A DNA stretch of 64,000 nucleotides. Source: an uncultured Chloroflexia bacterium. GTDB lineage: Bacteria; Chloroflexota; Limnocylindria; Limnocylindrales; CSP1-4. The stretch covers positions 2,218,772-2,282,771 of the forward strand of contig CAVSHH010000003.1 of assembly GCA_963727585.1 (NCBI GenBank). The letters are read 5' to 3'. Shown piece after piece: positions 53,564-64,000 of the stretch. Under the pieces are notes generated by a model. That model made no database searches. It was given only the letters and a program-made list of their open reading frames with translations, and was not told the DNA's origin. Each line of letters opens with the position of its first letter. The first letter of the stretch is position 1. Made by a program: the position numbers and the translations under genes.

Positions 53564-54142
53564 CTACCAGGCGTCCCCGGGTCGCCACTCGCAGCTCAGC
53601 GCCTCCGTCCCCGCCAGCGGCGGCGTGCGCGGCGTGCGGAGCACCATGATGTAGCCGTCCTCGGCAGCAGTTCGCTCGAGCCCGGTCGGCGTCCGGACCC
53701 AGGTCGGCCCGCGCCACGTCTCCCAGCCCAGCGGCGCGTAGAGCCCGTGGACGGCGGTGCCCAGTGCGCCGAGCTCGAAGCCCTCCCGGATGTGGGCGTT
53801 CGCCAGATCCATGAGGCGGCTCGCGATCCCGCGGTGCCGCCAGTCCGGGTGGGTCGCCACCGCTTCAACGTACCCGGTCGCCAGCGGCCGGCCGGCCGCC
53901 TCGAGCATGCGTGGCACGACGCTCGCGTGGCTGACGATCCGGCCACCTGACTCGGCGATCCAGTGCACGCCACCCATCGCGTGGTCTGCGTCCTCGGGAG
54001 TGAACTCCCCGTCCGGCCAGCAGGTTTGGAACAGGTCGAGGAGCTGCGCGAGATCGGCCGCCGAGAGGTCCGCGGTCACCGACCGGCGGATGGCAACCGG
54101 GTCCGGGATGGATGTCGTCACCGGTCGATCATCGGCCATCAT
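53564..54142 (-). CDS. GNAT acetyltransferase, aminoglycoside 2'-N-acetyltransferase AAC(2')-like
   Basis: YVEAVATHPDWRHRGIASRLM plus the C-terminal LSCEWRPGDAW closely parallel the mycobacterial AAC(2')-I motifs (YVEGVAV..DWRGQ ... CDWRAGDVW), as I recall them. Confidence 0.7.
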   Translation of the reverse strand: MMADDRPVTTSIPDPVAIRRSVTADLSAADLAQLLDLFQTCWPDGEFTPEDADHAMGGVHWIAESGGRIVSHASVVPRMLEAAGRPLATGYVEAVATHPDWRHRGIASRLMDLANAHIREGFELGALGTAVHGLYAPLGWETWRGPTWVRTPTGLERTAAEDGYIMVLRTPRTPPLAGTEALSCEWRPGDAW

Positions 54143-54174
54143 GGAGTCCGACGTCGTCTTCGGGAGACCCAGTG

Positions 54175-54525
54175 ATGACCGGTGACCTGCGCGACACCCT
54201 CCGCCGCCTCGAGATCGCCCTCGCCTCGGCCGATCCGGCGGGCATCGACGGTGGCCTGCCCGCCCTCCTCGCCGATGACTTCCTCGAGTTCGGTGCGAGC
54301 GGCCGCACGTGGGATGTGGCGACGACGCGGGAGGCGCTGGCCGGCGCCGCGTTCCACGAACCGGTCGATCTGTTCGACTTCGAGATCATCGAACTGGCCC
54401 CCGACGTCGTCCTGGCCACCTACCGCCTCGGCGAGCCTCGCCCGTCGAACCGGTCGACCATCTGGGTCCGGCGCGACGGGCGCTGGCAGGTCCGCTTCCA
54501 CCAGGGAACGCTGCGGGCCTCATAG
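54175..54525 (+). CDS. NTF2-like / SnoaL-DUF4440 domain protein
   Basis: ATG at 54175 with a GGGAG Shine-Dalgarno. Sequence LLADDFLEFGASGRTWD ... IWVRRDGRWQVRFHQGT fits the NTF2-like alpha+beta cone fold. Confidence 0.55.
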   Translation: MTGDLRDTLRRLEIALASADPAGIDGGLPALLADDFLEFGASGRTWDVATTREALAGAAFHEPVDLFDFEIIELAPDVVLATYRLGEPRPSNRSTIWVRRDGRWQVRFHQGTLRAS

Positions 54526-55620: not shown

Positions 55621-56271
55621 TCATCCGGCGCCCCCCGCCGGCCCGATGGGGGCGCGCGGGTACTGCTGGAAGAACGGCAGCCCGTCGGGCAACGTGGCAT
55701 TCCAGGCGGTGATGATCCCGTTCAGCAGGTACAAGGCGAGCCAGGCCACCACGACCACACTCGCGACCAGGATCAGCGTGCGCCGCAGCGGCGACCAGCG
55801 TTCCGGCCGCGGGTCCATCCCCGCCTGGCGACGCAGGTACCCCTGGTTGTTGCCGACGAGGACGGCGGGCACCCCGCCGATCAACAGGATCGAGGCGGTG
55901 ACGTCGGGCGAGGCGATGGCGCCGGCGGCGAACGCGATGGCAAGCCACGCGACGATCAGCGGGGTCCATGGCCAGGTCGCCCGGGCCGGGAAGCGCAGCC
56001 GGTAAATGGTGACGGCCACCAGCGCCAGGAGCGGCCCGAAGACGAGGGCGGCCCGGATCGGATCGAGCTCCGCCTCGACGACGAACGGGGGCACCAGCGC
56101 CGGGTCCGCCAGGAACCCGGGAACGAGCAGCGTGCCTGCCAGCCAGTACGCCAGGGTGGCGAGGGCCACGAACAGGACGACGTCGGCCACCTGGAGCAGT
56201 CTCGGGCGGCGGCTGTTCCGGCGCTCGCGGGCCAGGAGGCTGGTCGTCGATCCTTGTCGAGACACGGTCAC
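55621..56271 (-). CDS. hypothetical integral membrane protein
   Basis: GTG at 56271 with a GGAGG Shine-Dalgarno. About 5 TM helices. The upstream part of the ORF is low-complexity. Confidence 0.45.
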   Translation of the reverse strand: MTVSRQGSTTSLLARERRNSRRPRLLQVADVVLFVALATLAYWLAGTLLVPGFLADPALVPPFVVEAELDPIRAALVFGPLLALVAVTIYRLRFPARATWPWTPLIVAWLAIAFAAGAIASPDVTASILLIGGVPAVLVGNNQGYLRRQAGMDPRPERWSPLRRTLILVASVVVVAWLALYLLNGIITAWNATLPDGLPFFQQYPRAPIGPAGGAG

Positions 56272-56479
56272 GGTGCGCCTCCGATCGTGCCCCGAATGAT
56301 AGATCGCCGCGGATCCGGTCCGGACGATGATTTCAGGGCGGCGGTGGGATCGGGCTGCCACGAGGCCGCCCCAGCCCGGCAACACCGGTGGCCCGTAACG
56401 ATCTCCGGACGCCGGGGGCGAGAATGTGGGCCGCAATGGCGAAGATTGGAGGCGTCCCGTGTTCAGGCTGAGCGAAGGC

Positions 56480-56932
56480 ATGGAGATCGAGCGACCGGCG
56501 GCGACCGTCTGGCCGTATCTCAAAGCGCTCGAGCAGGTCCCGCTCTGGGAGCACGGCATCCTCCACGTGAAGCAGGTGGACCCCGGACCCCCGGTCGTCG
56601 GCATGCGGTTCACGGCCGGGCGGATCTATGCGGGGAAGGCCACCCATCTCGAAGGCGATGTGCGCACGCTGGAGGATGGCCACCTCATGACCGCGGCGCT
56701 GCGCGGAGGCCCCCACGTCGAATCACTGGTGACGTACGCCGTCGACCCGATCGGTTCCGATCGGTGTCGAGTCACCTACAGTGCCACCGGCCGACTCCGG
56801 TTCCCGCTCAACCTGCTCGACCCGCTGTACCCGGCCCTGGGTCGCGCGGAGACGCGCAGGAACCTGACCCGGCTGCGCCGTCGGATCCTGGCCGGCATCC
56901 CGCCCACCTCGAGCGCGCCCACCCCGGACTGA
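56480..56932 (+). CDS. SRPBCC (polyketide cyclase/START-like) family protein
   Basis: MEIERPAATVWPYLKALEQVPLWEHGI is typical of SRPBCC N-termini. Confidence 0.6.
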   Translation: MEIERPAATVWPYLKALEQVPLWEHGILHVKQVDPGPPVVGMRFTAGRIYAGKATHLEGDVRTLEDGHLMTAALRGGPHVESLVTYAVDPIGSDRCRVTYSATGRLRFPLNLLDPLYPALGRAETRRNLTRLRRRILAGIPPTSSAPTPD

Positions 56933-57298: not shown

Positions 57299-57964
57299 TC
57301 ATGGAGTGAACAGCTTCCAGTGCCCCTCGGAGACGACCTCGACCGCGCCGTCGACCACCTTGATTGCCGTCTGGTCGTCCATCGCGTAGCCCGGCACGGA
57401 CAGACCGGCGGCCCACCGCTCCGCGTCGGCCATGGTGTTCTCCGGCAGCTCCGGATGATCCAGGTGCGGGAACATCGCGAAGTCGACCATGCCCAGCGCC
57501 TCGTCGCCGCCGGTGGGCCGGGTCCACTGGGCGAACTCGTCCGCGATCCCGGGCGCCAGGACGAGGCTCCCGCCGCTCAATCCCACGTAGACCGCCCGCA
57601 GCGACGGCAGCAGGTCGGCGAGCCCCGACCGCCGCATCCAGCCGCCGAGGTAGACGGCGTCGCCGCCGTTCACCAGCAGGACGTCGGCCTCCCGGAGCGC
57701 GGGAACCCACTGCTCCTGGTCGATGCTGGGCAGGGCGGTCAGTTCGAGAACGCCCACCGACCTCCAGCCCAGCTCGACCATGGGGGTCCGGGGCTCCCGG
57801 CCGGCGATGAAGTTCCAGGCGAGGCTGGCCCCGCCCTGGAGGGGGTAGCTGGCAGTTGCGATGCACAGCGCGCGGCATGCGGCGATCGGCCGACCCAGCA
57901 GGTCGGCCAGCGCGGCGTGGATGCTCGGGTTGGTGACGCCGGCCGACGTCAGCAGCAGCTTCAC
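57299..57964 (-). CDS. peptidase S51 (dipeptidase E-like) / type-1 glutamine amidotransferase-like protein
   Basis: LLTSAGV ... VNGGDAVYL ... GLSGGSLVLAP is the peptidase E nucleophile-elbow pattern. Confidence 0.7.
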   Translation of the reverse strand: MKLLLTSAGVTNPSIHAALADLLGRPIAACRALCIATASYPLQGGASLAWNFIAGREPRTPMVELGWRSVGVLELTALPSIDQEQWVPALREADVLLVNGGDAVYLGGWMRRSGLADLLPSLRAVYVGLSGGSLVLAPGIADEFAQWTRPTGGDEALGMVDFAMFPHLDHPELPENTMADAERWAAGLSVPGYAMDDQTAIKVVDGAVEVVSEGHWKLFTP

Positions 57965-57994
57965 GATGGCTCTCCTTGTCGTGAGTCGGACAGC

Positions 57995-58783
57995 CTACGG
58001 CTTCACGCCGCTCGCTGCGAACACCCGGTGCGGGATCGACAGCTCGCCCGGGAACTCCGCGGCGAGCAGGGCCGTGAGGTCGCGGTCGAATCGCTCCACG
58101 TCGGCCGGTTCGAGCGACGGGCCGATGCCGTTGCAGGTCCGCATCCGTCCCCGCCAGGCCTCGTGCGTGAAGGTGACGTTCACCGTGTAGCTGAAGCTCT
58201 CGACGTCCCGGAAGCCCGCCTCGTCAATCGCCCGGACCTGCTCCGGGTGGATCCCCCGCCAGCCGGCCTTCGGCCAGCCGGGGTTGTGGTCGAGCACGAG
58301 TGCCTCGGTACGGCTGCAGACGTTGCCCGGCAGCAGCAGATAGCTGAAGTCGCAGATGAGCAGCCGGCCGCCACTCACGAGCAGGCGGGCGGCCTCACGG
58401 GCCGCGAGGTCGCTGTCGAACCACCACCAGCACTGGCCGGCGCTGACGAGGTCGACGCTCGCCGCGGGCAGCTCTGTGGCCTCGGCGGAACCCTCGACGA
58501 ACTCCGCATCGAGCCTGCGGACGGCCGCGTGGCGGCGCGCGACGTCCAGCAGATCCGACGCGATGTCGAGCCCCGTGACGGTCATCCCGCGGGTCGCGAA
58601 GGCCAGGGCGAGGGCGCCGGTCCCGGTCCCGAGGTCGAGCACGCGTCTGCCGGGTGCGATCCAGCCGACCTGCCCCAGGCGGTCGAAGAAGGAGTCGGGA
58701 AAGCCGGGCCGGTAGCGGTCGTAATCGGCGGCGGCCCGCCCGAAGTCGATCTGCCTGCCCTCGTGGTCTCGCATGCCGCTCAT
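57995..58783 (-). CDS. class I SAM-dependent methyltransferase
   Basis: Motif I (VLDLGTGTGALALAFA) and motif post-I (GLDIASDLL). Confidence 0.8.
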   Translation of the reverse strand: MSGMRDHEGRQIDFGRAAADYDRYRPGFPDSFFDRLGQVGWIAPGRRVLDLGTGTGALALAFATRGMTVTGLDIASDLLDVARRHAAVRRLDAEFVEGSAEATELPAASVDLVSAGQCWWWFDSDLAAREAARLLVSGGRLLICDFSYLLLPGNVCSRTEALVLDHNPGWPKAGWRGIHPEQVRAIDEAGFRDVESFSYTVNVTFTHEAWRGRMRTCNGIGPSLEPADVERFDRDLTALLAAEFPGELSIPHRVFAASGVKP

Positions 58784-59007
58784 GACGACCCCGCCATGGA
58801 CACCCAGAACCGCAGCCTGCCCTGGCGCTCGTCCTCGAGAACGCCGCCGTTGCGCGCGATGACGGTCCGCGAGCCGATGTCTTCGACGTCGCAGGTCACA
58901 GCACGGATCCGGTCGACGAAGTCGTCCGCGGCGCCGCGTCCCTGGGCCCTGAGCTCGTCCATGGCGGCGGCGAACGAGGGGCGGAAGCGGGCGTCGGGGT
59001 CGACCAT
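58780..59007 (-). CDS. hypothetical protein (75 aa)
   Basis: Internal ATG at 59007. Stop overlaps the methyltransferase ATG (ATGA). Lies 23 nt downstream of the ASCH-GNAT stop. Confidence 0.3.
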   Translation of the reverse strand: MVDPDARFRPSFAAAMDELRAQGRGAADDFVDRIRAVTCDVEDIGSRTVIARNGGVLEDERQGRLRFWVSMAGSS

Positions 59008-59032
59008 TCGCGGCGTCACCCGGGTCGCGGCG

Positions 59033-59998
59033 TCACCCGGAGCCCCCGGGATCGACGTCGTCCTCGGCCTCGACGGCCAGCTCGAGCTCCAGCTCGTCGC
59101 GCATCGGGATCCCGTACAGGCCGACCGTCGGGATCGCCGGCTTCCTGGTGGCCCGGCTTCGATCCACGGCGCCGGCGTCGACCCGGGCCAGGCGCAGCCC
59201 GCGCCGCTGGTAGAAGCGGAGCGCATCGAGGTTGTCGTTGGTGGTGACGAGCCACATGCGCCCTGCACCGATGGCACCGGCAACGGTTCGCGCGGCGGCG
59301 ATCAGCGCGCTGCCGGCACCTTGCCCGGGGTGCATCGCGTGGAGCGTCAGAATCTCCAGCGACCCCTGCCCGGCAATCCAGGTTGCGACGCCGGCCAGCG
59401 CGCCCTCGGACTCGGCGATCAGCGCAGGATGCCGGCGGGCATCGACCAGCTCGTTGCGGCGGGCGACGACCGCGGATTCGTTGGCGTCGAGGAAGGCGTC
59501 GACCGCGGGCCGGTCGGCGAGCATGGCAGGCCGGACGGTGATCCGCGCGGCGGGATCGGGCCCCAGGACCTCGGCCACGCGGAACCGCTCGGCGACCACG
59601 GGCGTGTCGTCGGTCACGCGGAACGTCGGGTCGCCGAGGCGCGCGCGCAGCTGATCGATCTCGCGCCCCCAGTAGCGCTCGTGCGCTATCCGGAACGCGG
59701 AGGCGTCCGCGAAGCCCTCGCCCTCGTCGATCGCGTGGGCGTCATCGATGTCGGCAAGACGTACCACGGGACGGCTGGTGGTCTCCACGATGGCAACCGG
59801 CTGCTCGGCGGAGCCGACCAGCACCTGGCGGGCGCCGGGCAGCGGCAACGGATCCCCGTCGAGCTCGTACTCGACGCGCAGGCCGGTCGTGGCGGTCTTG
59901 ACGCCGGCCAGCGCTCGCCGCGTCAGGTCATCGCGCAGCGATCCGGGCGATGCGAACCCCCAGCGCGGCAGGCCGTCGAGACGCGAATCGTCGATCAC
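59033..59998 (-). CDS. ASCH (PUA-like) domain - GNAT acetyltransferase fusion protein
   Basis: N-terminal ASCH/YqfB-like segment (WGFASPGSLRDDLTRRALAGVKTATTGLRVEYELDGDPLPLPGARQVLVGSAEQPVAIVETTSRPVVRLADIDDAHAIDEGEGF). C-terminal GNAT core (GVATWIAGQGSLEILTLHAMHPGQGAGSALIAAA ... NLDALRFYQRRGLRL). No stop between the domains. GTG start at 59998 is tentative. Confidence 0.6.
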   Translation of the reverse strand: MIDDSRLDGLPRWGFASPGSLRDDLTRRALAGVKTATTGLRVEYELDGDPLPLPGARQVLVGSAEQPVAIVETTSRPVVRLADIDDAHAIDEGEGFADASAFRIAHERYWGREIDQLRARLGDPTFRVTDDTPVVAERFRVAEVLGPDPAARITVRPAMLADRPAVDAFLDANESAVVARRNELVDARRHPALIAESEGALAGVATWIAGQGSLEILTLHAMHPGQGAGSALIAAARTVAGAIGAGRMWLVTTNDNLDALRFYQRRGLRLARVDAGAVDRSRATRKPAIPTVGLYGIPMRDELELELAVEAEDDVDPGGSG

Positions 59999-60144
59999 GC
60001 GCCCGATGATACGGATCGTGGTGCGACTCGGATCGTGACAGCCGACCCGTCCGGGGAGTCTGTGGTGCTGGCGAGGTGCGCTCGGCGCCGGTGGCAGAGG
60101 CGACCGGACCGTCGTGTGGACCAGGGACCTGGTCGGGCGATCCC

Positions 60145-60687
60145 CTAGCGGGGCCGCAGTCGATCCAGCTCGAACGACCAGTCGTTGCAGGTCATCCAAT
60201 GGCCCGCCGGGTACTCGAACTCGCCGGTGTCCACGATCTCGTAGCCGAGCTTCCTGCACACCGTATTGGAGGCGGCGTTGTCCACCGACGGGAACGCGTG
60301 GATGGTCCCGTAGCCAGTCTCGGCCGCCGCGATCTCCATGCACCGCGCCGTGGCGCGGGTGGCGATGCCGCGGCCCTGGTGCTCCGGCAACACGGCCCAG
60401 CCGATCTCGAGCGCCGGCTCGCCGCGGATCTCGTGCGCCCAGTACACGACCGAGCCGACATCCTGGCCGTCCGAGCCCAGGGTCACCACGAACGTGCGAC
60501 CGGCCTCTGGCGCCAGCGCGAGGTACCGGTCCAGCCGCGACCGCAGCTGGGCGGGCGATTCCGGACCGCCCAGGTGGGTGGTCATGGCCGGGTCGCCAAG
60601 CAGCCGGCGCATCAGCTCGAGGTCGTCCGCGGTCCAGGGGCGGAGGTCGATCTCGATGGCGCGATCGGGGGACGGGCTCGCTTCCAT
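60145..60687 (-). CDS. GNAT family N-acetyltransferase (RimJ/RimL-like)
   Basis: ATG at 60687. WAVLPEHQGRGIATRATARCMEIA ... DNAASNTVCRKLGYE. Confidence 0.75.
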   Translation of the reverse strand: MEASPSPDRAIEIDLRPWTADDLELMRRLLGDPAMTTHLGGPESPAQLRSRLDRYLALAPEAGRTFVVTLGSDGQDVGSVVYWAHEIRGEPALEIGWAVLPEHQGRGIATRATARCMEIAAAETGYGTIHAFPSVDNAASNTVCRKLGYEIVDTGEFEYPAGHWMTCNDWSFELDRLRPR

Positions 60688-60714: not shown

Positions 60715-60822
60715 TGCGCAACCGCCCCGTGGATGCGCAACACCGGGTCCAGTGAACGCGCAAACCCGCTCCGGTGACCGCGCAACCCGCGCCGTGATGC
60801 CGCAACCCGCTCCGTGATGCCC
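60715..60822. repeat. five degenerate about 21-bp direct repeats (consensus GCGCAACCCGCTCCGTGATGC)
   Basis: Read directly: gcaaccgccccgtggatgc / gcaacaccgggtccagtgaac / gcgcaaacccgctccggtgacc / gcgcaacccgcgccgtgatgcc / gcaacccgctccgtgatgcc. Confidence 0.55.
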
Positions 60823-60969: not shown

Positions 60970-60975
60970 GGGAGG

Positions 60976-61146
60976 GATCGGGCCGGAGTGGGATCGAGCC
61001 GGAGTGGGATCGGGCCGGGGGATCGGGCCGGAGTGGGATCGGGCCGGAGTCGGATCGGGCCGGGGGATCGGGCCGGGGGATCGGGCCGGAGTCGGATCGG
61101 GCCGGGGGATCGGGCCGGGGGATCGGGCCGGAGTGGGATCGGGCCG
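60976..61146. repeat. tandem repeat array, about 11.5 copies of alternating 16-bp (GATCGGGCCGGAGTGG/-TCG) and 13-14-bp (GATCGGGCCGGGG(G)) units
   Basis: Read directly across 60976-61146. Units are head-to-tail with no spacers. The array abuts the mfd stop. Confidence 0.9.
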
Positions 61147-61148
61147 GA

Positions 61149-64000
61149 TCAGACGCCGACCCCGGCCCGGCCGGCGCCAACCCCAGCCGCCGCCACCAGC
61201 CGCGAGACCACCGCCTGGGTCAGCGTCCAGCCCTTGAGCGGGTCGCGTGGCAGTCGGATCCGGACCTGGTTGGAGGCGAACGTGATGTCACCCGGACGCA
61301 CGCCGGGCAGCGGCGCCGTGCCGCCCGCCGCTCCGGGTGCCAGCAGCTGCATCGCGGTGGCACGCGAGAGGGCCGCCCCGAACCGCACCACCAGCCAGCC
61401 CTCCTCGCGGGCGACCGACGCGACGCCGGCCGACTCCGCCGACAGCCGCAGCTCGGCCACCTCGACCAGCCGCAGGGCGGGCTGGGGCATCGGCCCGTAG
61501 CGATCGGTGACGTCCTGGCGGAAGGCGGCGAGGTCGCCGATCGTCCGCGCCCGGGCCAGCCGCCGGTAGAGCTCCAGCTTCTGCGCCTCGTCGGGCACGT
61601 ACGAATCCGGCAGGTGCGCATCCACGGGAAGATCCACGACGGCCTGGGGCACCTCGCGCACCGGTTCGCGGTCCTCCCGCCGGGCCTTGGCCTCCTCGAC
61701 CGCCTCGGCCAGCAGCCGCGAGTACAGGTCGAACCCAACCGAGGCCATGAACCCGCTCTGCTCGCCGCCCAGGATGTTGCCGGCGCCGCGAATCTCGAGG
61801 TCGGCCAACGCGATCTGGAACCCGGCGCCCAGCTCGGACGCGTTGAAGATCGCCTGCAGCCGCTTGCGGGCCTCCTCGCTCATCCGCTCGCGCCGCCGGT
61901 ACAGGAGGTAGGCGTAGGCCCGGCGCGACGACCGCCCGACCCGCCCGCGGAGCTGGTAGAGCTGGGCAAGGCCGAGGGTGTCCGCGCGGTCGATGATGAT
62001 CGTGTTGGCGTTGGGGATGTCGAGGCCGCTCTCGATGATCGTGGTGCACACGAGGACGTCGGCCCCGCCGTCCGCAAACGAGAGCATCACCTTCTCCAGC
62101 GCGCCCTCGGACATCTGGCCATGCCCGACCACGATCCGCGCTCCCGGCAGCAGTCGTCGCAGCTGCTCAGCCTGTGCCTCGATGGTCTCCACCCGGTTGT
62201 GAACGTAGAACACCTGGCCGCCGCGGTCGAGCTCGCGCAGGACCGCATCGCGGACAAGGCCGGCCGACGCCTCCGCCACCCTCGTCTGGATCGGCAGCCG
62301 GTCCTCGGGCGGCGTCTCGATGACGCTCAGGTCTCGAATCCCGGCGAGGGCCAGGTTGAGCGTGCGCGGGATCGGCGTGGCGGACAAGGTCAGCACGTCC
62401 ACGGCCGATCGGAGCTGCTTGAGCCGCTCCTTGGCCGCGACGCCGAAGCGCTGCTCCTCGTCGACGACGACCAGCCCGAGGTCCCGGAACGCGACATCCT
62501 TCGACAACAGCCGGTGGGTTCCGATCACGATGTCGACCGTGCCTGCCTCGAGCCCGGCGACCGTCGCCGCCTGCTCCCGCGCCGACACGAACCGCGACAG
62601 CAGCTTCACGGTCAGCGGGAAGGCCGCGAAGCGCTGGGAGAACGTCGCGAAATGCTGCCCCGCGAGCACGGTGGTAGGGACGAGCACGGCGACCTGCTTG
62701 CCGTCCTGGGCCGCCTTGAACGCGGCGCGGAGGGCCACCTCGGTCTTGCCATAGCCGACGTCGCCGACGACCAGCCGGTCCATCGGTGTGCGGGTCTCCA
62801 TGTCGACCTTGGTCTCGACGACGGCACGCAGCTGGTCGGGGGTCTCCTCGTACGGGAACGACGCCTCCATCTCGGCCTGCCACGGTGAGTCGGCCGCATA
62901 GGAGAATCCCTGCGCCGCCGAGCGCTTGGCGTACAGCGCCAGCAGCTCGTCGGCCAGGTCGCTGACCGCCTTGCGCACCCGCTGCTTGGTCCGCAGCCAC
63001 TCGGTCCCGCCCAGCCTCGAGAGCTGCGGATGCTCCCCGCCCGAATATCGGCTGACGCGATTGATCTGCTCGACGGGGACGAAGATCCGATCGGTGCCGG
63101 CGAACGACAGCTCGAGGTAGTCGCGCTCCTCGCCCTCCGCGCCACGGCGGAGCATCCGCTCGTAGCGCGCGATGCCGTGGTCGATGTGGACGACCATGTC
63201 CCCCGGCGCCAGCCGCTCGAGCAGATCGCGCGGGACCACCCGGCGCATCGCCTTGGGCCGCCGGACCCGGACCGATCCGAACAGCTCGCGGTCGGTGACC
63301 ACGGCCAGCCCGTCCGGGCCGCCCTCGAACCCGCCGTTGAGGCTCCGCTCCACGAGCGCGATCGCGCCCGGGGGCGGCGCTTCGGCCACCCGTCCCACGA
63401 TCGCCACGGGATGCCCGGCGTCGTCCAGGAGCTCGGCGAGCCGCGGCGCCTGGTCGGAGGCGAGCACGACCCGCCGGCCCTCGCCCAGCCAGTGCTCCAC
63501 GCCGTCGACCAGCCGCTCCGTGCGACCCGGCGGCAGGACGGGTTCTCGCCAGCCGAACAGGTCGCCCGAGGTGAGCCCCTTCGACGCGTAGGCCATCCCC
63601 GCGGCAACCGCCGCCTCGGACTCCCAGGTCAGCTCGAGCGTCCGGGCGCCGTGGAGCCGCGCCTTCCAGTCGCGCGGCGGCAGGTACGCGGTCGGCCAGC
63701 CCTTCGGGAGCTCACCCTGTTCGACGAGCTCACCCTGTCGCTCGTCCGCCTGCGACCACAGGAAGTCGGCCGCGTCCGCCAGGTCGCCCGGCTCGTCGAG
63801 GACGAACAGCGTCGACGGGTCCAGGTGGTCGAGGCCCGTGGACGGGGCGACCAACCGGGCCCACACCTCGGCCGCGTCGGCCGCTGCCAGCGCGCGACCG
63901 GACGCGACCGTGACCGGATGCTCGGGCGACGCTTCACCGGCGAAGCGGGCGAGGTCCGCGGCCAGCCGCTCGGGCAGCCGCGCCCCCAGGCGGCCGAGCC
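61149..64000 (-). CDS. mfd: transcription-repair coupling factor, partial (N-terminus beyond window end)
   Basis: Contains the RecG-like SF2 helicase motifs (DVGYGKTEVALRAAF ... DEEQRFGV ... QLRGRVGRS), the RNAP-interacting domain and the C-terminal TRCF domain. The reading frame stays open through the window end, and the ORF-track start at 63866 is an internal GTG. Confidence 0.9.
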   Translation of the reverse strand, partial: LGRLGARLPERLAADLARFAGEASPEHPVTVASGRALAAADAAEVWARLVAPSTGLDHLDPSTLFVLDEPGDLADAADFLWSQADERQGELVEQGELPKGWPTAYLPPRDWKARLHGARTLELTWESEAAVAAGMAYASKGLTSGDLFGWREPVLPPGRTERLVDGVEHWLGEGRRVVLASDQAPRLAELLDDAGHPVAIVGRVAEAPPPGAIALVERSLNGGFEGGPDGLAVVTDRELFGSVRVRRPKAMRRVVPRDLLERLAPGDMVVHIDHGIARYERMLRRGAEGEERDYLELSFAGTDRIFVPVEQINRVSRYSGGEHPQLSRLGGTEWLRTKQRVRKAVSDLADELLALYAKRSAAQGFSYAADSPWQAEMEASFPYEETPDQLRAVVETKVDMETRTPMDRLVVGDVGYGKTEVALRAAFKAAQDGKQVAVLVPTTVLAGQHFATFSQRFAAFPLTVKLLSRFVSAREQAATVAGLEAGTVDIVIGTHRLLSKDVAFRDLGLVVVDEEQRFGVAAKERLKQLRSAVDVLTLSATPIPRTLNLALAGIRDLSVIETPPEDRLPIQTRVAEASAGLVRDAVLRELDRGGQVFYVHNRVETIEAQAEQLRRLLPGARIVVGHGQMSEGALEKVMLSFADGGADVLVCTTIIESGLDIPNANTIIIDRADTLGLAQLYQLRGRVGRSSRRAYAYLLYRRRERMSEEARKRLQAIFNASELGAGFQIALADLEIRGAGNILGGEQSGFMASVGFDLYSRLLAEAVEEAKARREDREPVREVPQAVVDLPVDAHLPDSYVPDEAQKLELYRRLARARTIGDLAAFRQDVTDRYGPMPQPALRLVEVAELRLSAESAGVASVAREEGWLVVRFGAALSRATAMQLLAPGAAGGTAPLPGVRPGDITFASNQVRIRLPRDPLKGWTLTQAVVSRLVAAAGVGAGRAGVGV

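Follow-up and report, generated by a model that had tools for sequence, protein, structure and literature searches.

An ASCH–GNAT fusion protein of uncultured Chloroflexia: a candidate bifunctional enzyme for small amine or amide compounds

Introduction

Just 3' of mfd in the high-G+C genome of an uncultured Chloroflexia bacterium of the Limnocylindrales-like group, a single open reading frame (ORF) encodes a protein of 321 amino acids (aa) in which an ASCH domain is followed by a GNAT acetyltransferase domain, and the question raised by this locus is why a fold that is able to take acyl groups off should be covalently joined to one that puts them on. The gene lies on the minus strand of a 64,000-nt stretch of contig CAVSHH010000003.1 (assembly GCA_963727585.1), here called the window, to which all coordinates refer with position 1 as its first letter. 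An earlier note on this DNA saw in the fusion, a GNAT gene ahead of it (GNAT1) and three genes behind it a module for the modification or salvage of acylated nucleobases or nucleosides. The comparisons described below show that the ORF encodes a genuine conserved two-domain protein and is not an accident, and they suggest, with a probability of about one half, that the protein is a bifunctional enzyme of the small-molecule detoxification type, the coupled ASCH and GNAT domains of which act on a small, probably cationic, amine or amide compound. As substrate, a nucleobase is less likely than a small cationic molecule, an antibiotic for example.

A conserved two-domain protein

Both domains of the single ORF were recognised by Pfam above the gathering scores, as the earlier note had supposed: ASCH (PF04266) at residues 22-142, with 38.0 bits against a cut-off of 21.2, and Acetyltransf_1 at residues 186-267, with 39 bits against 20.7. 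An AlphaFold2 model made with 34 homologues (predicted local distance difference test score 93.4, predicted template modelling score 0.89) is confident throughout residues 1-310. The ASCH domain is a PUA-like β-barrel, and the other half has the GNAT fold and retains the acetyl-CoA motif A glycines G227-x-G229. By profile, fold and motif the fusion is a member of both the ASCH and the GNAT superfamilies and, within the former, of the DUF984/YhfF type.

A homologue search of 5.8 billion proteins gave 422 matches, more than 60 of which are full-length ASCH–GNAT proteins at 50-79% identity, many with a DUF4440 domain added at the C-terminus; the genome-resolved relatives are all metagenome-assembled genomes (MAGs) of uncultured Chloroflexia or 'Candidatus Limnocylindrales'. 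Far from being peculiar to this genome, the joined reading frame is kept free of in-frame stops in many relatives. When 1.84 billion representative proteins were scanned exhaustively with HMMER, divergent fusions at 35-38% identity (P0155 and P0185) and many stand-alone GNATs of the fusion's subtype came to light. The order of the domains is reversed, GNAT–ASCH, in P0151, and at one locus (L021) a separate GNAT gene has a stop codon that overlaps the start of a glyoxalase–ASCH gene, whilst a second family of about 345 aa combines the same ASCH type with an unrelated Acetyltransf_7/9 GNAT. Since the two domains are found fused in both orders, as a split but overlapping gene pair and with two GNAT subtypes, sequence comparison strongly supports a functional tie between them.

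Each domain also has other partners. In Actinomadura gamaensis (L053:9998-10915) the same type of ASCH domain forms a fusion with a mycothiol S-transferase/DinB domain, at L021:6861-7715 it forms one with a glyoxalase/bleomycin-resistance domain, and it occurs alone, as a protein of about 145 aa, in Streptomyces and Micromonospora. The GNAT subtype is found elsewhere fused to DinB_2, to a chloramphenicol-phosphotransferase (CPT)-like P-loop kinase and to other GNATs. In databases the fusion goes by automatically assigned names, among them 'GNAT family N-acetyltransferase' and 'YhfF/GNAT', and literature searches found no description of, or experiment on, the ASCH–GNAT architecture; like it, the ASCH architectures of L053 and L021 appear to be undescribed.

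The putative active site of the ASCH domain

The ASCH domain carries the motif G32-x-K34-T-A-T37-T-G39, the acidic stretch D91-E-G-E-G95 and H106. Its assignment to the DUF984/YhfF (COG4405) type comes from matches of the family profile to EF3133 (1t62; 7.7e-18) and to a Lactobacillus crispatus ASCH protein (3s9x; 3.1e-15), with which it has the G-x-K-T-A-T and EGEG motifs in common in the alignments, and relatives carry the Joint Genome Institute name 'YhfF'. Both of these structural-genomics proteins stand alone, whereas here the ASCH domain is covalently joined to a GNAT.

Comparison with Escherichia coli YqfB (1te7, 9kyf), another acidic protein with the ASCH β-barrel, was made by hhalign with a YqfB sequence verified against 1te7. 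In this alignment K34 corresponds to Lys21, T37 to Thr24, G39 to Arg26, H88 to His70 and E92 to Glu74, so that the G-x-K-x-x-T motif, the glutamate and, in the present protein, the histidine are held in common. In YqfB Lys21, Thr24 and Arg26 are essential, the R26A mutant being inactive, and the Glu74Ala change slows the enzyme 100- to 1000-fold; Arg26 is the terminal residue of the 'GKTR' octapeptide and belongs to the oxyanion hole (PMC6972931). Conservation was scored on two alignments, one of 30 ASCH domains and one of 34 fusion proteins. K34, E92, E94 and H106 are invariant in both and T37 is kept in 30/30 ASCH domains and 33/34 fusion proteins, whilst H88 is variable. The positions of the Lys/Thr/Glu amidohydrolase site of YqfB are, as far as alignment can tell, retained (K34, T37 and E92), one of the two points on which the earlier note had made its proposal depend.

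A 2026 preprint surveying ASCH proteins reports that the GKTR and GKER classes deacetylate N4-acetylcytidine (ac4C) and states that bacterial sequences with a substituted terminal motif position lay outside those tested, and it is to this terminal-non-Arg class that the fusion's ASCH domain belongs.

The GNAT domain and the proposed reaction

The best sequence matches of the GNAT half in the PDB are nourseothricin acetyltransferase (5c82; 4.6e-7) and SttE (7ypu; 1.1e-5), the latter a streptothricin self-resistance acetyltransferase (PMC10156733). Identity to the streptothricin acetyltransferases is 27% over 125 aligned residues, and these β-lysine N-acetyltransferases are, on sequence, the nearest characterised relatives of the domain. 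The fusion differs from them in having an extra conserved C-terminal segment as well as the attached ASCH domain.

In the reaction proposed here the substrate would be a small and probably cationic molecule with amine and amide groups, for instance a xenobiotic or antibiotic or some metabolite akin to these. Binding, and probably hydrolysis, of an N-acyl or amide bond would fall to the ASCH domain, and the GNAT domain would acetylate a free amine either of this compound or of its hydrolysis product. Acetylating and deacetylating one and the same group would be futile, so different groups, or intermediates that follow one another, are the most likely targets of the two sites. The fusion would do so within a variable cluster of acetyltransferase and detoxification-type genes just 3' of mfd. 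A small-molecule substrate is favoured because the domains with which the two halves are combined (DinB/mycothiol S-transferase, glyoxalase, DUF4440 and the CPT-like kinase) are of the detoxification type, because GNAT, AAC(2')-like, DinB and MFS genes are neighbours of the fusion and APH or MarR/ArsR plus MFS genes lie by some stand-alone ASCH genes, and because the family's ASCH domains are strongly acidic (pI 4.2-4.8, median net charge −15). Strong acidity of this kind is a typical trait of enzymes with polycationic drugs as ligands. The combination of two small-molecule-modifying domains in one polypeptide, one of them a GNAT, has a counterpart in AAC(6')-Ie/APH(2'')-Ia, where the partner is a kinase rather than a putative amidohydrolase and where resistance is proven, whereas for ASCH–GNAT it is hypothetical.

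It is at least chemically plausible that a hydrolase and an acetyltransferase should be paired. For streptothricin only two drug-modifying resistance routes have been biochemically validated, and they are carried out by separate enzymes: acetylation of β-lysine by GNATs (STAT) and, by SttH, hydrolysis of the lactam amide, through which a new primary amine becomes exposed (PMC11702664). This is an analogy and not evidence. A more specific form of the proposal, that both domains act in turn on one cationic amide antibiotic or metabolite, the ASCH domain opening or removing an amide or N-acyl group and the GNAT domain then capping an amine that is free or newly exposed, is put forward only as an outside chance.

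Several findings weigh against a small-molecule hydrolase–transferase. The position of Arg26 is occupied by G, S, A or D in the family, by Gly in the present protein and by Arg in 0/64 sequences, so that hydrolytic activity of the ASCH domain is not assured. The hhalign match to YqfB is weak (E 0.019, probability 2.5%), YqfB was not among the PDB sequence matches of either the fusion or the ASCH family profile, and YqfB is a single-domain protein of 103 aa, compared with a domain of about 150 aa within a 321-aa fusion; judged by Arg26, size and similarity the fusion would not be classed as a YqfB-type enzyme. Searches of the literature on YhfF, DUF984, EF3133 and COG4405 found no functional study or demonstrated activity. 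The match of the GNAT half to the NCBIfam 'stat' family (NF000487) is partial and reaches 28 bits against a cut-off of 420, so the half is a distant relative and not a member of that family. Guilt by association is a soft argument, because domains called 'detoxification-type' are common in any accessory region, and the contexts of the stand-alone ASCH genes in Streptomyces and Micromonospora are mixed, with no obvious link to detoxification.

The loss of the arginine leads directly to an alternative that must be taken seriously, although on balance it is unlikely: the ASCH domain may be non-catalytic, a ligand-binding or regulatory β-barrel that gates or targets the GNAT as the single catalytic activity. 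The missing residue is the oxyanion-hole arginine of YqfB, the same ASCH type is mounted in an adaptor-like manner on several different catalytic domains, and two other ASCH proteins, ZmASCH and TRIP4, do not hydrolyse free ac4C in vitro. Yet the equivalent arginine is dispensable in EOLA1, and the invariance of K34, E92, E94 and H106 and near-invariance of T37 in fused and stand-alone members alike are more typical of a catalytic site than of a pocket that only binds.

Genes around the fusion in relatives

The proteins of the window were searched by tblastn and the loci of relatives compared, first 80 loci of GTDB-representative genomes and then nine metagenomic loci. Three arrangements 3' of mfd were found among them. 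At 66-71% identity mfd is followed by GNAT1, ASCH–GNAT and an AAC(2')-like GNAT; those of these loci with gene calls (L083-L087) have an opposite-strand MOSC gene after mfd, and in L084-L087 the three acetyltransferase genes all overlap stop to start. At 54-63% identity there is an ASCH–GNAT–DUF4440 triple fusion, with GNAT1 ahead of it in 4/6 loci. In the nearest relatives (L081 and L082, 73-75% identity) ASCH–GNAT is followed by an intact 183-aa Acetyltransf_3 GNAT ('GNAT3') and, in L081 only, by a methyltransferase 84% identical to that of the window, with stops and starts overlapping. The window combines GNAT1 upstream with a downstream arrangement of the L081/L082 type.

Across the loci GNAT1 lies upstream of the fusion in L001, L002, L004, L006, L007, L009, L010 and L083-L087, and an AAC(2')-like GNAT lies immediately 3' of the fusion, and overlaps it, in L001, L002, L010, L083, L084, L086 and L087. 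The commonest core in relatives is the series GNAT1 (RimJ-like), ASCH–GNAT and AAC(2')-like GNAT, and from these arrangements the conserved unit is an ASCH–GNAT gene flanked by other GNATs. In the window the AAC(2')-like and DUF4440 genes lie about 5 kb further on, amid DinB, DUF1801 and SRPBCC genes. The DUF4440 gene of the window has 43-47% tblastn identity to the fused domain of relatives (L004, L006, L007, L009, L044 and L048), which links the fusion, in Rosetta-stone fashion, with an opposite-strand gene at a distance of 4.5 kb. Genes of the DinB, MFS, MarR/ArsR and APH families occur near loci of the family.

Stand-alone ASCH genes have surroundings of their own. In five Chloroflexota loci (L020, L026, L030, L045 and L049) such a gene is followed by a Cupin_2 gene and then by an APH-family phosphotransferase gene, and in four others (L028, L032, L035 and L036) it adjoins a divergent MarR/ArsR-type regulator gene and an MFS transporter gene.

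The genes 3' of the fusion in the window are a different matter. A methyltransferase, an S51 gene or the small ORF was found beside the fusion in 0/80 GTDB-representative loci, an S51 peptidase gene in none of the 80 genome and nine metagenomic loci, and GNAT3 together with the methyltransferase in L081 only; the five genes from GNAT1 to S51, which the earlier note had grouped together, are thus not a conserved unit. The view that the methyltransferase, S51 gene and small ORF are wholly unconserved does not stand, as the nearest metagenomic relatives show ASCH–GNAT followed by intact GNAT3 and, in L081, the methyltransferase. GNAT3–methyltransferase(–S51) is a small separate module and a lineage-specific addition here.

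Within this module the small ORF looks coding (G+C content at third codon positions, GC3, 0.91) and had no Pfam or NCBIfam match even at E <= 10; its homologues are C-terminal pieces of 'predicted acetyltransferase' proteins. Alignment of DNA and protein with GNAT3 of L081 reveals that about 104 codons have been deleted in frame, which takes out the acetyl-CoA-binding core, and that residues 1-33 and 41-79 align at 77-79% identity. Both termini and a short segment from the middle are left, and so is the ATGA coupling to the methyltransferase gene. On this alignment the small ORF is a decaying Acetyltransf_3 GNAT, and not a functional 75-aa partner. In L081 the fusion and GNAT3 overlap as ATGA; the window has at this junction a 17-nt duplication, absent in L081, which appears to have uncoupled the two genes.

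The methyltransferase matched no NCBIfam family at cut-off. Its 84% identical orthologue follows GNAT3 in L090 as well as in L081, and a scan of metagenome contigs yielded 77 loci, among which the pairing with GNAT3 occurs only in L090 and L142 and a following S51 gene, with an N-terminus 63% identical, only in L142, a contig of 1175 bp that ends short of any ASCH–GNAT gene. About 70 other methyltransferase homologues, at 45-79% identity, have no ASCH–GNAT gene nearby and sit in unrelated contexts. In L142 itself the order is GNAT3, methyltransferase and S51, and the methyltransferase match begins at query residue 91, which suggests an N-terminal deletion removing the SAM-binding (S-adenosylmethionine-binding) motif. 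The module seems to decay differently in different lineages.

These observations bear on the earlier proposal of a locus for the editing or salvage of acylated nucleobases or nucleosides, in which the ASCH domain, like YqfB, would strip N4-acyl groups from cytosine or cytidine, the GNAT would re-acylate or acetylate the base and the methyltransferase and peptidase would serve the same pathway. YqfB-type enzymes are the only biochemically defined amidohydrolases of the ASCH fold, and the Lys/Thr/Glu positions are kept; the YqfB authors regarded the closest structure, 1t62, as closely homologous and used it for modelling; ac4C is deacetylated by many ASCH classes; and the genes of the window are co-directional and tightly spaced, with the methyltransferase coupled in the nearest relative. 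On the other hand Arg26 is absent, no gene of nucleoside or nucleobase metabolism was found in any of the loci examined, neither the methyltransferase nor the peptidase is a conserved partner, the GNAT3 gene between has decayed in the window, and the fusion partners of both domains are of the detoxification type and not of nucleotide metabolism. It must be considered improbable. What stands of the earlier view is the functional tie of ASCH and GNAT; its application to acylated nucleobases is not supported, given the lack of Arg26 and of nucleoside-type neighbours.

A macromolecular target is more improbable still. The ASCH domain would here be a PUA-like RNA-binding module that steers the GNAT to tRNA, rRNA or a ribosomal protein, possibly as a writer and eraser. 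ASCH and PUA domains are classically associated with RNA (PMC7641849), several ASCH proteins deacetylate tRNA ac4C, and GNAT1 is of the RimJ/RimL type. There are, moreover, known systems of GNAT and PUA-like (EVE/ASCH) domains with predicted targets in nucleic acids or aminoacyl-tRNA, namely the (PIN)-GNAT-EVE systems with an ASCH gene (Iyer et al. 2013; PMC7641849). In those, however, the GNAT is fused to EVE, with or without PIN, the ASCH gene is separate and often combined with an HTH (helix-turn-helix) domain in one protein, and the setting is one of restriction-modification or toxin-antitoxin genes, whereas here a DUF984-type ASCH domain is fused directly to the GNAT, there is no PIN or EVE domain in the fusion or flanking genes and no restriction-modification gene in the annotated loci. 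The very acidic ASCH domains, with their median net charge of −15, also tell against binding of nucleic acid, as do the Pfam calls, which give ASCH and GNAT only, with no HTH or other nucleic-acid-binding domain in the fusion, and the DinB/mycothiol S-transferase, glyoxalase, DUF4440 and CPT-like kinase partners. A toxin-antitoxin or defence role of the GNAT-EVE/ASCH kind was rejected, EVE and PIN domains and restriction-modification genes being absent.

Layout of the locus

The region has a G+C content of about 72%, and the cluster (Table 1) follows an mfd gene the product of which, along most of its length, has 86-92% identity to those of uncultured Chloroflexia and Limnocylindrales MAGs. 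The five genes from GNAT1 to S51 are co-directional with short gaps or overlap, as in a same-strand operon, and identical sequences of all five proteins are present on one contig in public annotation. The gap is 146 nt from GNAT1 to the fusion and 30 nt, with an AAGGAG-like site, from the methyltransferase to the S51 gene. A scan for promoters and terminators, which is uninformative for this phylum, gave no such sites in the region.

Table 1. Positions of genes and other features in the 64,000-nt window
Feature	Position	Strand	Basis or remark
mfd	61149-63866		upstream of GNAT1
GNAT1, RimJ/RimL-type, 180 aa	60145-60687	-	Pfam Acetyltransf_3, E 7.7e-25
ASCH–GNAT fusion, 321 aa, GTG start	59033-59998	-	ORF translation; Pfam ASCH and Acetyltransf_1
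ASCH domain of fusion, aa 1-150, DUF984/YhfF type	59549-59998	-	
GNAT domain of fusion, aa ~152-310, conserved C-terminal extension	59069-59545	-	
Perfect 17-nt tandem duplication	59008-59040		fusion stop/GNAT3 start junction; TRF, period 17, 1.9 copies, 100% match
Small ORF (GNAT3 remnant)	58780-59007 (75 aa, ATG) or to 59019 (79 aa, GTG)	-	
Class I SAM-dependent methyltransferase, 262 aa	57995-58783	-	Pfam Methyltransf_11, E 1.5e-18; also Methyltransf_25
S51-family peptidase-like gene, 221 aa, GTG start	57299-57964	-	Pfam Peptidase_S51, E 3e-13
Stand-alone DUF4440 gene	54112-54525	+	Pfam
AAC(2')-like GNAT (Acetyltransf_9)	53564-54142	-	NCBIfam AAC(2')-Ic, E 4e-30, under cut-off

Most of the gene calls made in the earlier note agree with these. 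The RimJ-like GNAT ahead of the fusion and the class I methyltransferase are confirmed by their Pfam matches, the small ORF and the methyltransferase gene do overlap by 4 nt (ATGA), and three or four GNATs within 7 kb is a correct count, three being intact and one a remnant. The gap after the fusion, given as 23 nt, measures 25 nt to the ATG of the small ORF and 13 nt to its GTG; the 75-aa ORF is where it was placed, and is a decayed GNAT rather than an independent small gene; and the supposed peptidase E does belong to the S51 family (50.3 bits against a cut-off of 23.9 for Pfam Peptidase_S51), whilst the identification as PepE is not upheld (17.7 bits against 156 for the PepE equivalog).

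Long plus-strand ORFs antisense to the minus-strand genes, of up to 942 aa (e.g. 57320-60148), were rejected as artefacts of high G+C content, since it is only in the minus-strand frames that GC3 is high. A 330-aa ORF at 55621-56613 (minus strand), between SRPBCC and DinB genes, has coding-like codon bias and hydrophobic stretches and no Pfam match.

Two repeat arrays lie between mfd and GNAT1. The first, at 60974-61148, starts directly past the mfd stop codon and consists of about 12 copies of GGGATCGGGCCGG, in which spacings of 13 nt and 16 nt alternate and the higher-order period is 42; nowhere else in the window is there such an array (12 matches, with 1.5 expected), and related loci lack it at the matching position. 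The second, at 60716-60821, just 5' of the GNAT1 start codon, is degenerate, with about 4.7 copies of a unit of about 20-22 nt, and may have a regulatory role or be prone to slippage.

Conclusions

An enzymatic role for ASCH domains, as deacylases of ac4C and N4-acylcytosine, has been assigned only recently, and the large bacterial DUF984/YhfF class, which is without the arginine at the end of the motif, was left out of the recent ASCH survey. The repeated joining of this class to acetyltransferases and detoxification-type domains provides a handle on its substrate, by way of whatever the partner GNAT acetylates, and the value of the fusion lies in opening a way to the function of the class. 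That value would be greater if the two domains were to act in sequence on one compound. The protein would then carry out a two-step inactivation or an acyl swap within a single polypeptide, it would provide the first biochemical function for the DUF984/YhfF ASCH class, and bifunctional enzymes that modify drugs or metabolites would gain a new type. Otherwise the fusion would be an ordinary accessory enzyme. Chloroflexota resistomes are poorly explored, and a hydrolase–transferase of this kind would be a new bifunctional architecture for the modification of small molecules, possibly antibiotics, in soil Chloroflexota.

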